A DNA stretch of 64,000 nt from Flavobacteriales bacterium (GTDB lineage: Bacteria > Bacteroidota > Bacteroidia > Flavobacteriales_F > PHOS-HE28). This document shows positions 60,890 to 64,000 of this stretch, piece after piece. The stretch spans positions 68,431 to 132,430 of the forward strand of contig JBIQIX010000010.1 of assembly GCA_044507815.1 (NCBI GenBank), given 5' to 3'. The translations under genes were made by a program, and so were the position numbers. Each line of letters starts with the position of its first letter. The stretch's first letter is position 1. The notes below the pieces were generated by a model, which saw only the letters and a program-made list of their open reading frames with translations, had not been told where the DNA came from and ran no database searches.

Positions 60890-61300
60890 GTGCCCGAAGA
60901 CACCAGAAGTTGACTTGGTTCACAGGGCCGGAAGCTGTTTTCTAACGTTTTGGCGCTTGGCGCAGTGGCGGATTTCGGAGCACAAAACTGTCAATACACC
61001 ACAAAAGTTGATGCGAGGTAGAATTTTCAATTAACCACGTCACCCGCCATTGCCGCCAAACGCCTGTTGTGTGCTGGCGTTCTTGTCCGCTGTGTCTGTA
61101 AACCATTGTATTTGTTGAGTTTGCGTCCATTGTCGGGTTGCGTGTCGGGTGTTTTAATTTTTCATTTTGTTGGGAAAAAATTTTGAAATTCTGTCCAGCG
61201 TGGGAAAGGTGGAAGCTCTTTTGCAAGCTTTGGTCTGTGCTTGGACTTGTGCGGCTTGCAAATGTGCTTACACCTGTGCGTTGGCTTTTTTCTTCCTTTC

Positions 61301-63382
61301 TCATTTGATATGCACTTCAATAATCTTGCTTGTATCAATTCCTAAAATGTCAACCACTTTTACCATTACTTTGTATTTGCCTGCTTTTTTGTATTCGTAG
61401 GCTATGCTTGTAAATTCAAGCGTTGGATTTTTCTTGGTGCGGAAACCCTGCCATTCGTTTTCAAAAAGGTAGTTGCCCGTCCATTGCTCTTCGGTTTCGC
61501 CCGATTCGTTTTTGATTTTGATGATTTCCTTTTTGTCTTCGTAGTTGAAGTCAATTGCCCAGTAATCTATCCAGTCGTGCCAGTCTTTCGTGAGAATGGT
61601 TTTGGTGATGATTCCGTTTTTGTCTTTTTCTACTTTGATTATCTGACCGTCTTCAATTACCACTTTACTTCCTGCTCTCATTGACTGTTGCAATTCTTCA
61701 ATGTCGTCTTGGGTGTAATGGGTAACAAAGTCGGTCAGTTCGATTGTGATAGATTTGCCGTTGATTTTTTCTTTGGTGTTCAAATAGGCAACATCAAAGA
61801 ATTTTACTTGCCCTTTCTCAACCGCTCGTTTGTCAAATACATCTTTGGGTATGTATTTCAATGTAATGGAAACGCCTTTTTCTTTCAGTTCCTGAATGAA
61901 CTGGGGTGTTAAGCCCATTTCAAACTCAAAGCCCAAAACATCAACCTGCGTATAAAGATTTTTGCGGCACTCTTCAAAAATATCAACCAATCGGCTTTGT
62001 GTAACAGGAACATCTAATGGCCCAACGTGAACAAATCTGCCTGATTTTTGCCCGTGCAATGCACTATGTCCGTCAATTCTTTTGGCTTTGTAGGCTTCCA
62101 AAATTAAGTCCACATACAAATCTTCTTTGGCTTTGCGTTTGCCGTTTGTAAGGTCGTCCATAAAGAACTGCCTTTCATACTTACCTAAGTTGAGAATCTC
62201 AAATGCTCTGAAATCTTTCCCATTGGTTTGCAGTTCTCGCTGTACACCAATTAAACGCTTACGTGCAGTGTGAATAGAAAAACGTCCTAAATCGGTAGTA
62301 ATCCATTTTCTCCCTAATTTTTCTGCTACTGCTGCTGTAGTGCCACTACCACAGAAAAAGTCTGCAATCAAATCACCTTCATTTGTGGTTGATGAAATAA
62401 CCCGTTCAAGTATGGTTTCTGGTTTCTGTGTGGGATAGTTTAAGTTTTCAGTATCATCAGCTGGCTGAAGCATTGAAAGTCGCCATACATTATCGACAAC
62501 TCTTGCGTCTCTCATCTGATACATCACATTGCCTGACTCATCTCTTGCATTAATCATCTTGCCATCAACCTTCTTTCTTACAAGTTGCTTTACGGGATTA
62601 TCTCGTTTCTCTTCGATAGGTGTAAAGGTATATTTAGACTTGTCCTTTACATACCAAAAAATCGTATCCGTTGCTCTTGGGAAAACTCCCTTTCTTGTGT
62701 CGGGCATTTTATTGTAGTAATACCAATAAATTTCATTTCGGAAATTTTCAACTCCGAATATATCATCCAATAGCAACCTTAGATATGAACTTACTTTCCA
62801 ATCAATATGAACAAAAATGCTTCCATCCTTGGCCATCAAACCGTGCATTAACTTCAATCTCTCATACATCATTGAGAGATAAGATGAAATACCCTTTCCC
62901 CAAGTATCACGGTAAGCAATTTCTTCAATAATGCTTTGTTTCTTTTCGGCTGTTTCACCATTAATTTCAATGTTAAAACCAAAGTCAGCACCTACGGCAA
63001 AAGGTGGGTCAATGTAGATGAGTTTTAAACCGCCTTCTTTTTCTATTTCATCACGAATAGGGCCATTTGCTAATGAAGAAAGAATCAATTTATTATCGCC
63101 CCAAATCAATTTGTTTGTCCATCCTTTGAGTTGTCGCCCACGGGTGTCAAACATTTCAAACATATCGCCTTGCTTCTTTTCTTCTTTGCGTGGCTCGTCT
63201 ATATGCTCAATGCTATGAAAGGGTAGGGCTACATTGGTCACATCTTCCTTTCTTCCGTTCCAAAACAGGAATACATCTTCTTCGTCAGCAAAAAGTTTGT
63301 AAATGAATTCCTTTGGCAGTTTTTCACCTGCCTTTATCAGTTCAATGATTCGGTTTTTATCAGTGTCGTTTAAGTTCATCAA
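61301..63382 (-). CDS. Type III R-M Mod-like N6-adenine DNA methyltransferase (beta-class), no adjacent res
   Basis: NKLIWGDNKLILSSL...LIYIDPPFAVGADFG (motif IV, DPPF), a central variable TRD-like region, then FFCGSGTTAAVAEKLGRKWITTDL (motif I, FxGxG). Overall this matches EcoP15I-Mod-type architecture. 693 aa. AT-rich codon usage. Confidence 0.85.
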   Translation of the reverse strand: MMNLNDTDKNRIIELIKAGEKLPKEFIYKLFADEEDVFLFWNGRKEDVTNVALPFHSIEHIDEPRKEEKKQGDMFEMFDTRGRQLKGWTNKLIWGDNKLILSSLANGPIRDEIEKEGGLKLIYIDPPFAVGADFGFNIEINGETAEKKQSIIEEIAYRDTWGKGISSYLSMMYERLKLMHGLMAKDGSIFVHIDWKVSSYLRLLLDDIFGVENFRNEIYWYYYNKMPDTRKGVFPRATDTIFWYVKDKSKYTFTPIEEKRDNPVKQLVRKKVDGKMINARDESGNVMYQMRDARVVDNVWRLSMLQPADDTENLNYPTQKPETILERVISSTTNEGDLIADFFCGSGTTAAVAEKLGRKWITTDLGRFSIHTARKRLIGVQRELQTNGKDFRAFEILNLGKYERQFFMDDLTNGKRKAKEDLYVDLILEAYKAKRIDGHSALHGQKSGRFVHVGPLDVPVTQSRLVDIFEECRKNLYTQVDVLGFEFEMGLTPQFIQELKEKGVSITLKYIPKDVFDKRAVEKGQVKFFDVAYLNTKEKINGKSITIELTDFVTHYTQDDIEELQQSMRAGSKVVIEDGQIIKVEKDKNGIITKTILTKDWHDWIDYWAIDFNYEDKKEIIKIKNESGETEEQWTGNYLFENEWQGFRTKKNPTLEFTSIAYEYKKAGKYKVMVKVVDILGIDTSKIIEVHIK

Positions 63383-63747
63383 TTGTCAATTGGATTGTTT
63401 ACTATTAAATCAGGAATGTGGTTAAAGTCGCCTGCGTTCCTTGTAATTACTTCTGTGCAATGCAATAATGCTGTTGCAGCAATTATCGCATCAGCCGATT
63501 TCATATTTCTTTGCTGCCTTAGTTCAGTGGCTCTATCAATCACTTCACTTGTTATTGGCAAAATGGTAACCAATGAAAATACGGCATTGAAATATTCTTC
63601 GGCTTCTTCAGTTAAACCGTGATAGCCCAATACTTCAAGTTTGGTTAATTCAGAAACAGCCAAATCTTCCTGTTCCAATAATTCCTTTAATTGTGGAAAA
63701 TCAGGCTTTGCAGCGTACATCAATATGTTGCTATCTACTAATCTCAT
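63379..63747 (-). CDS. vapC: PIN-domain toxin, VapC family
   Basis: MRLVDSNILMY (Asp5), SADAIIAATAL and TRNAGDF acidic residues of a PIN fold. 122 aa. 4-bp overlap with the upstream small ORF, and 4-bp overlap of its stop with the methyltransferase start. Confidence 0.85.
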   Translation of the reverse strand: MRLVDSNILMYAAKPDFPQLKELLEQEDLAVSELTKLEVLGYHGLTEEAEEYFNAVFSLVTILPITSEVIDRATELRQQRNMKSADAIIAATALLHCTEVITRNAGDFNHIPDLIVNNPIDN

Positions 63748-63959
63748 AGCCCATTGATTTTACGCTCCGTTCTGTCTTTCTTTTGCCATTCCACAGGGTC
63801 GCCAAAGTTTGATACGTCCGCTCCCTTTTTAATGAGTTGTATGGCTTCTTCCTTAGAAAGTTTTTTGCCGAAGTCCTTAACGAAAAATATAGAAATAAGG
63901 TCTTGGAATGATTTCAGGTTGTTCTTTAAGTCATCCCATTTTTCCTGTTTTACATACAC
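63744..63959 (-). CDS. putative cognate antitoxin (VapB-like small protein)
   Basis: 71-aa ORF immediately upstream of and overlapping vapC. No recognisable DNA-binding motif, so the call is by position only. Confidence 0.45.
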   Translation of the reverse strand: MYVKQEKWDDLKNNLKSFQDLISIFFVKDFGKKLSKEEAIQLIKKGADVSNFGDPVEWQKKDRTERKINGL

Positions 63960-64000
63960 AGGATTGTATGAGTATTCGCTTTGAGCATTGTTGATGTCTT

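Follow-up and report, generated by a model that had tools for sequence, protein, structure and literature searches.

The window analysed here is a 64,000-nucleotide (nt) stretch of contig JBIQIX010000010.1 (forward-strand positions 68,431 to 132,430; assembly GCA_044507815.1) from a metagenome-assembled genome (MAG) designated 'Flavobacteriales bacterium', which originates from a PET-enrichment microcosm (PMC12159941). At its right end, on the minus strand, lies part of a restriction-modification (R-M) operon in which a VapC-type PIN toxin gene sits between genes for a Type III-like restriction subunit (res) and modification subunit (mod). The operon runs past the window end and is complete on two contigs that match the final 7.6-10 kb of the window at 100% identity (window 54001-64000), one from a Logan assembly (L001, on which window position 64000 is position 7717) and one from NCBI assembly GCA_044508195.1 (L002); on both it reads res (929 amino acids, aa), PIN (122 aa) and mod (692 aa). 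An earlier interpretation made from the letters of the window alone, here called the sequence-only reading, had placed a horizontally acquired, low-GC island at this position, with VapC-type PIN and Type III Mod-like genes translationally coupled on the minus strand, and each of these proposals holds. Upon recalculation GC content was non-uniform, dropping from 62.3% (window 1-60944) to 39.2% (60945-64000), and a 300-nt sliding profile fell from 0.60-0.65 to 0.36-0.41 across ~60850-61150 and was low from there to the window end. The break lies within a few bases of a cassette boundary (60945/60946) that was set by comparison with other genomes. The figure of 65% GC given earlier for the genome was too high, the host having ~61-62% (MAG mean 60.8%).

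Within the window, res is represented by its last 85 codons (63744..64000, minus strand), an open frame that runs past the window end and whose full-length product combines a superfamily 2 (SF2) helicase with a PD-(D/E)xK nuclease. The separate 71-aa vapB-like gene that the sequence-only reading had called at 63744-63959 does not exist as such, as its frame is open as far as 64000 and corresponds to the C-terminus of the 929-aa Res on L001 and L002. The end of res overlaps the PIN start by 4 bp (ATGA). The PIN gene (63379..63747, minus strand) encodes a 122-aa protein that consists of the PIN domain alone (Pfam PIN, 4.6e-14) and conserves the acidic residues D5, E38, D86 and D107, as expected of a VapBC toxin; in the family alignment (A1), D5, S6, N7, E38 and D86 are invariant and D107 is nearly so. 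The closest solved relative of the family profile in the PDB is VapC (7by2_B, 8.8e-20), matches to NCBIfam VapC models are weak and under cut-off, and the exact protein is present on five public contigs. Downstream, mod (61301..63382, minus strand) encodes an N6-adenine DNA methyltransferase of 692 aa from an ATG at 63379, or 693 aa from a TTG at 63382. With the ATG chosen by gene callers, PIN and mod overlap by 1 nt (TGATG), and with the TTG by 4 nt; thus, of the 4-bp overlaps earlier described as joining three genes, that between PIN and its upstream frame stands, and that between PIN and mod applies to the TTG start only. An exact look-up of the 693-aa Mod returned no match because gene callers start at the ATG one codon later.

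Mod has the features of a Type III N6-adenine methyltransferase, matching Pfam N6_N4_Mtase (4.5e-46) and, over residues 42-558, PADLOC MTase_III (PDLC03633, 2.5e-127), with EcoP15I Mod (4zcf_A) and Mod 6k0w_B among its relatives in the PDB. A variable middle segment (62412..62721, minus strand), at which homology to other cassette copies breaks and then resumes (L001 8996-9305), is its presumed target-recognition domain. In Res, the helicase motifs are intact (GAGKT at 135, Walker A; DEAHH at 283, DEAH; QTIGRGLR at 508, motif VI), as is the PD...ExK nuclease motif (PDFF at 809 and ETKG at 824, spanning 809-827). Res therefore carries the SF2 helicase motifs and C-terminal PD-(D/E)xK nuclease of a Type III restriction subunit, its matches to curated Res models being weak or partial: Pfam ResIII at 2.8e-14, PADLOC REase_III at 7e-19 over ~260 residues, and, as the nearest family, the NCBIfam BPTD_3080 family restriction endonuclease at 7e-80, under the model cut-off. 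Comparison with PDB sequences gave no match for Res. As the catalytic motifs of Res have been kept, PIN is an addition to the restriction enzyme and not a replacement for it. The sequence-only reading had suggested searching the methyltransferase and PIN against PADLOC models; the search succeeded for Mod, and neither the PIN protein nor the 71-aa tail frame matched any family in PADLOC-DB 2.0, their neighbours matching only the generic MTase_III and REase_III models.

The wider distribution of the toxin was surveyed with the A1 profile across one genome per species, which returned 80 loci that were then compared with Res, PIN and Mod by tblastn. PIN was positioned between res and mod only for the three closest PINs (73-97% identity; L006, L007 and L008), and neither res nor mod was nearby for any of the PINs at 40-52% identity (L009-L085), whose hosts span cyanobacteria, Cytophagales, Saprospiraceae, Chloroflexi, Planctomycetes and one archaeon. 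Most of these stand-alone PINs are preceded by a 73-142-aa open reading frame (ORF) whose end meets or overlaps the PIN start, and a small ORF so placed occupies the classic antitoxin position. The N-terminal halves of these small proteins are unrelated to one another (some are DUF2281 or PF01954) and the C-terminal motif is common to them. A collection of plasmids contained no near match to the cassette, the sole matches there being remote, stand-alone VapC genes (34-35% identity).

It is this C-terminal antitoxin motif, roughly (F)GDPxxWQRExRxDRxLPGR, that recurs at the end of Res. The last ~35 residues of Res include KKGADVSNFGDPVEWQKKDRTERK, within a C-terminus reading EEAIQLIKKGADVSNFGDPVEWQKKDRTERKINGL, and match the C-terminal motif of the antitoxins upstream of stand-alone PINs, as exemplified by the C-terminal sequence IIEKGVDVSNFGDPSEWQRQTRKDRKIIDI of a stand-alone antitoxin from a Chitinophagaceae MAG. 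A hidden Markov model (HMM) built from the last 45 residues of 73 stand-alone antitoxins, with no Res sequence in the model, matched Res residues 895-925 (EEAIQLIKKGADVSNFGDPVEWQKKDRTERK; window 63759..63851, minus strand) at E values of 1e-9 to 8e-8, and the next best match among 1443 six-frame ORF fragments from the window and three loci scored 0.17. The same model recognized the diverged Res tails of L095 (4e-11), L093 (3e-8) and L104 (3e-13), and also that of L008; altogether the tail motif was found in six diverged Res lineages with 74-100% mutual identity. One W and one R are invariant in the joint alignment of antitoxins and Res tails (A2), with D, Q and R nearly invariant. When a profile of the motif was searched against a set of 5.8 billion proteins, the best 120 of 719 matches were all 34-84 aa long. 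Since a model trained only on antitoxins finds the Res tail, the stretch formerly taken for a vapB-like gene is, on sequence grounds, derived from an antitoxin and is not a gene. The 'vapB-like' label was thus wrong about the gene and right about its affinity, the stretch carrying the toxin-binding motif of the matching antitoxins fused to Res. The separate small antitoxin gene with a DNA-binding N-terminal domain that typifies VapBC is absent, the frame upstream of PIN being the 929-aa res. Pfam offers no model for the antitoxin motif; one of four antitoxins scanned matched DUF2281, weakly and in its N-terminal part. In the open-access literature, no description of a restriction subunit with a fused antitoxin peptide was found.

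Tail and toxin co-occur strictly. Across 19 distinct loci of the clade in which PIN is embedded in the R-M operon (L001, L006, L007, L008, L093, L095, L104, L105 and 11 metagenome contigs), with identities ranging over 48-100% for PIN and 74-100% for Res, a tail-bearing Res was directly upstream of PIN in every case, and PIN without tail or tail without PIN was not encountered. The same association was reflected in protein length among the best 120 Res clusters of the 5.8-billion-protein set: all 33 clusters of 907-931 aa carried the tail motif and none of the 87 clusters of 886-901 aa did so, the short proteins ending in KSFQDLIEIFKITEKELAQ. Res proteins from operons lacking PIN are 97-99% identical to the tailed form and ~40 residues shorter at the C-terminus. 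The contexts of two such tail-less proteins were checked: the 892-aa Res is followed directly by mod with a 4-bp overlap (L086 and L087), and in L088-L092 a PDDEXK_3 gene of 139 aa separates the 888-aa Res from mod, with no PIN in either.

Nucleotide homology between the window cassette and tail-less cassettes (L086 and L088) extends to Res codon 883 (L001 7832) and picks up again where mod begins (8338/8347); 'tail plus PIN' thus behaves as one exchangeable unit. Seven embedded PINs were placed in a neighbour-joining tree of 84 PIN family members, where they form a single clade, which points to tail and PIN having been captured once. The same 120 Res clusters, from Flammeovirgaceae, Bacteroidales, Prolixibacteraceae, Larkinella and other Bacteroidota, are 96-100% identical in Res, but only 78-88% in Mod where Res is 96-100% identical. 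As judged by these identities, this implies that the res backbone spread across families very recently and that the specificity region of mod was swapped.

Comparison of the flanks shows that the operon is carried on a mobile, integron-like cassette of 5.9 kb with G|TT ends, which recurs in unrelated Bacteroidota. The low-GC DNA totals 6.9 kb on L001 (~3915-10772, 38% GC) and is made up of two units, the first a lnu(H)-like lincosamide nucleotidyltransferase and the second res-PIN-mod, both terminating in a ~125-nt imperfect hairpin flanked by AAC...GTT. The attC-like hairpin that ends the R-M cassette (60942..61068, minus strand) folds into a long stem with bulged bases and meets host DNA at a G|TT junction (window 60946|60945), and a 97%-identical copy of it ends a different cassette in L097. 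An R-M unit with the same two ends was found in L007, L086, L088 and L089, in unrelated surroundings, and the sequence past AAAACG|TT differs each time. The lnu(H)-like gene upstream of res (L001 3977-4732; NCBIfam LnuH, 1.1e-132, at 441 bits where the cut-off is 540) is paired with an attC-like site of its own (L001 4745-4872). Downstream of mod there is no res, as the sequence-only reading had correctly stated for the window; the attC-like site is followed there by a host Gate-family transporter gene.

A tyrosine recombinase gene of host-like GC adjoins the array upstream, the array and recombinase together occupying L001 2564-10775, of which window 60942-64000 is the right end. An identical recombinase with both its flanks carries other low-GC (25-43%) genes in other samples, on L097 (8653-11899) and L098 (2742-5795), the sequences parting ways after AAGGAG|TT. 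The attC hairpin bounds, G|TT crossover and variable content beside an integrase that characterize integrons are all present here, whereas an IntI with its additional domain is not: the recombinase scored 174 bits against the TIGR02249 cut-off of 265 and higher with a XerA model, has ~24 residues between the matched stretches compared with ~71 in IntI, fell under the curated cut-offs of both IntI and Xer models, and has XerC-like proteins and XerA as its best PDB relatives. Because of the missing IntI-specific insertion and the sub-cut-off scores, a canonical integron was rejected and the term 'integron-like' kept. For Bacteroidetes, the IntegronFinder 2.0 paper (PMC9024848) reports nothing beyond In0 elements and a single complete integron, that of Salinibacter ruber. 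Copies of the res-PIN-mod operon without attC-like ends also occur on elements that carry genes for Bacteroidota-type integrases and excisionase-like HTH_17 proteins; one such element is in the cultured Larkinella insperata (GCA_042679125.1, L105). A tRNA-targeted island was rejected as well, since no tRNA gene was detected in the window.

Two positions in the cassette accept accessory genes. Slot A, between the res body and the mod start (63380..63884, minus strand), holds the Res tail and PIN here and is empty in L086 and L087 or occupied by PDDEXK_3 in L088-L092 (for example L088 4533-4952). Slot B, after mod, is empty here and elsewhere holds either a 349-aa DUF3644 gene (L006 6028-7077, L086 12745-13794) or a gene for a 567-aa OLD-like ATPase-TOPRIM (AAA/TOPRIM) protein (L088 7125-8828, L007 5689-7392). 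The slots vary independently, PIN in slot A having been seen with all three slot-B states; the PIN-less cassettes examined combined an empty slot A with DUF3644 in slot B, or PDDEXK_3 in slot A with the OLD-like gene. The most diverged locus, L104 (PIN 48%), encodes a 778-aa TPR protein and a 313-aa TIR-domain protein after mod (5945-9274), which may be another defence pair. At the slot-B position of the window, a 120-aa ORF (60942-61304, minus strand) overlaps the mod stop by 4 bp and has no family match. It begins with MRKE, the first codons of the slot-B DUF3644 gene of L006 and L086, and its remainder crosses a palindrome and then the attC-like site; the frame most likely marks the scar of a deletion rather than a real gene. 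The palindrome, a 54-nt repeat (GCACATTTGCAAGC ... GCTTGCAAAAGAGC; 61215..61268, minus strand), has a second copy ~60 nt upstream of res (L001 5074-5126) and flanks the operon on both sides in L001, L007, L086 and L087 (repeat families D1/D11 and I2/I12); it might serve as operator, terminator or recombination site.

Elsewhere in the window and its extension, a small signal recognition particle RNA of Bacteroidales type (6047-6153, plus strand; Rfam RF04183, 106.7 bits) fits a Bacteroidota host despite the 62% GC. The left host flank of the array carries two SET-domain genes in tandem and a class I methyltransferase gene beside the recombinase (L001 811-2539), and a third SET-domain gene lies across the array (L001 13755-14186), a concentration that is unusual for a bacterium. 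A scan for sigma-70 promoters and terminators found no excess over shuffled controls, the sigma-70 model being unsuited to Bacteroidota promoters.

Comparison across loci supports this architecture well, and its function we infer. In VapBC complexes the C-terminal region of VapB wraps VapC and blocks its active site, and the N-terminal domain only binds DNA; by analogy, the Res tail would silence PIN and tether it to the restriction complex. On balance, and with moderate confidence, we favour the reading that res-PIN-mod is a complete Type III-like R-M cassette in which full-length Res neutralizes PIN, with the toxin being freed when Res is lost, truncated or disabled. The fused antitoxin tail would in that case probably tie the silence of the toxin to an intact restriction enzyme. 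Binding and inhibition of PIN by the tail, toxicity of PIN and the trigger for its release are here inferred.

Under this reading, a vapBC-type pair would have been captured once at the res/mod junction, where the antitoxin shed the N-terminal domain and kept the C-terminal toxin-binding peptide, which now forms the last ~35-45 residues of Res. Translational coupling would then yield the PIN RNase in a fixed ratio with Res, whose tail would bind PIN and hold it inactive, tethered to the restriction complex. As the antidote would form the extreme C-terminal end of a 929-aa chain, only full-length Res could neutralize the toxin. The RNase would be set free if the cassette were lost, if res decayed through nonsense or frameshift mutations, if Res were proteolysed or if some factor displaced the tail, and the cell would then be arrested or killed. 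The minimal outcome would be addiction to an intact res gene and to the cassette. In ordinary Type III systems the loss of res carries no penalty, because Mod works alone. The proposal of the sequence-only reading that the locus is stabilized by a toxin-antitoxin (TA) pair accordingly survives in altered form, as the TA coupling of a complete R-M system and not of a solitary methylase.

Several points weigh against neutralization of PIN by Res. Around 70% of the near-identical Res clusters lack PIN, so the toxin is dispensable for restriction. The assignment of the small upstream ORFs as antitoxins is drawn from their position, their size and a few DUF2281 or PF01954 domains, and the motif was not found in solved structures, the profile returning chance matches in the PDB (MLKL, 0.027). 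A 929-aa protein would be a stable carrier, unlike the labile antitoxins of type II systems, and a premature stop in res might also cut PIN synthesis through translational coupling, which would weaken the logic of a toxin that monitors res integrity.

The same wiring may also act as a backup that fires when phage disables restriction, an extension that differs in selective benefit and trigger and to which we attach appreciable but clearly lower probability. Res would then be the sensor of a hard-wired guard: a phage-encoded anti-restriction factor, by binding, modifying or degrading Res, or the loss of Res itself, would dislodge the tail and free the VapC RNase, which would cut tRNA or rRNA and abort the infection. 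A toxin encoded inside an R-M operon and silenced by an R-M subunit parallels PrrC, which is kept latent through EcoprrI (PMC1484252); moreover, the cassette gathers further defence-type genes in its two slots (PDDEXK_3, OLD-like ATPase-TOPRIM and DUF3644, with TPR and TIR proteins nearby), in keeping with the described pattern of embedded defence genes (bioRxiv 10.1101/2024.01.29.577857). Set against this, PIN has no PADLOC match, the NTPase sensor domain of PrrC is absent, and no sequence feature distinguishes a guard from plain addiction; the wiring would act as addiction, as a PrrC-like backup or as both.

The remaining alternatives part with neutralization altogether. The tail might serve as a dock, anchoring an active PIN so that the Res-Mod complex gains a further effector, for instance against phage transcripts, R-loops or single-stranded DNA near the restriction site. 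A permanent, stoichiometric tether through a stable protein would suit such a role, as would the translational coupling kept at both junctions and an arrangement held while PIN diverged to 48% identity. Nevertheless, the motif is the part conserved across antitoxins with different N-terminal domains and is the inhibitory element in known VapBC pairs, and toxicity would be expected of a VapC-type RNase left uninhibited; we therefore judge docking improbable. Still less credible is a vapBC hitch-hiker, inserted and fused by accident, that contributes nothing to R-M or whose PIN is inactive. TA modules do enter mobile DNA promiscuously and most copies of this cassette lack PIN, yet intact frames, catalytic residues and the tail motif have been kept across lineages with PIN at 48-100% and Res at 74-100% identity, and in none of the 19 loci were tail and PIN apart. 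Finally, the two interpretations offered by the sequence-only reading, a TA-stabilized orphan Mod and a PIN that replaces Res as effector, were reasonable inside the window, where no res is visible and nothing island-like follows mod, but that reading had itself named a res gene beyond 64000 as the refuting observation, and the full res directly upstream of PIN on the contigs identical to the window, with helicase and nuclease motifs intact, leaves both with practically no standing.

When Res-mediated neutralization of PIN is set beside known systems, the closest in components is VapBC, with which the locus shares a VapC-family PIN with conserved acidic residues, a 4-bp overlap with the upstream frame and the cognate antitoxin motif. 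It differs from VapBC in lacking both a free antitoxin gene and any domain for DNA binding or autoregulation, in that the toxin-binding peptide ends a 929-aa restriction subunit, and in that the R-M operon drives expression. PrrC joins an ABC-type NTPase to an anticodon nuclease in one protein, is held non-covalently with the Type Ic system EcoprrI and is triggered by the T4 Stp peptide. Neither an ABC-type NTPase nor an anticodon-nuclease domain of the PrrC/RloC kind is present here, and no PADLOC model, that of PrrC included, matches PIN. Alike are the latent RNase gene inside an R-M operon and the reliance of silencing on an R-M protein (PMC1484252); unlike PrrC, the locus pairs a PIN/VapC RNase with a Type III-like R-M system through a grafted antitoxin peptide. 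With the Type III systems EcoP15I and EcoP1I it has in common the N6_N4_Mtase Mod, a Res with SF2 helicase and C-terminal PD-(D/E)xK nuclease, and the variable middle of mod. Rather than the two-gene order of mod then res, however, the order here is res-PIN-mod (res-mod in PIN-less relatives), with a third gene between the two subunits and a Res distant from canonical models. The nesting of accessory genes at fixed operon positions, here two slots holding PIN, PDDEXK_3, DUF3644 or an OLD-like nuclease, resembles the embedded defence genes for which Hma, BREX, DISARM and Type I R-M were named as host systems; in that preprint, the PIN example is paired with an ABC ATPase and a fusion of an antitoxin peptide to a host subunit is not reported (Payne et al. 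2024, bioRxiv 10.1101/2024.01.29.577857). TA cassettes of integron arrays likewise offer a parallel, as TA function here resides on a cassette with an attC-like site, G|TT junctions and an adjoining tyrosine recombinase, although it is built into a 5.9-kb R-M cassette and the recombinase lacks the IntI-specific insertion.

Should the tail neutralize PIN, the locus would represent a natural TA pair whose antidote has been rewired into a restriction enzyme, providing a direct physical and genetic link from restriction to toxin-mediated growth arrest. Such a link has until now rested mainly on the single example of PrrC-EcoprrI, of which this would be a Type III counterpart that arose in another, simpler way. 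It would likewise exemplify a general route by which any protein could become a guarded 'antitoxin' through acquisition of a short C-terminal toxin-binding peptide. Annotation pipelines label the PIN an ordinary 'VapC family toxin' without an antitoxin and miss the motif on Res. The hypothesis is easily testable, involving a 46-residue peptide and a 122-residue toxin, and the system is present in the cultured Larkinella insperata. More broadly, the locus illustrates how integron-like cassettes in Bacteroidota carry defence operons built from interchangeable accessory slots. Ultimately, it suggests how Type III systems, in which res can decay without penalty, could be guarded against the loss of restriction, and addiction of this kind would be meaningful for a readily excised cassette as well.

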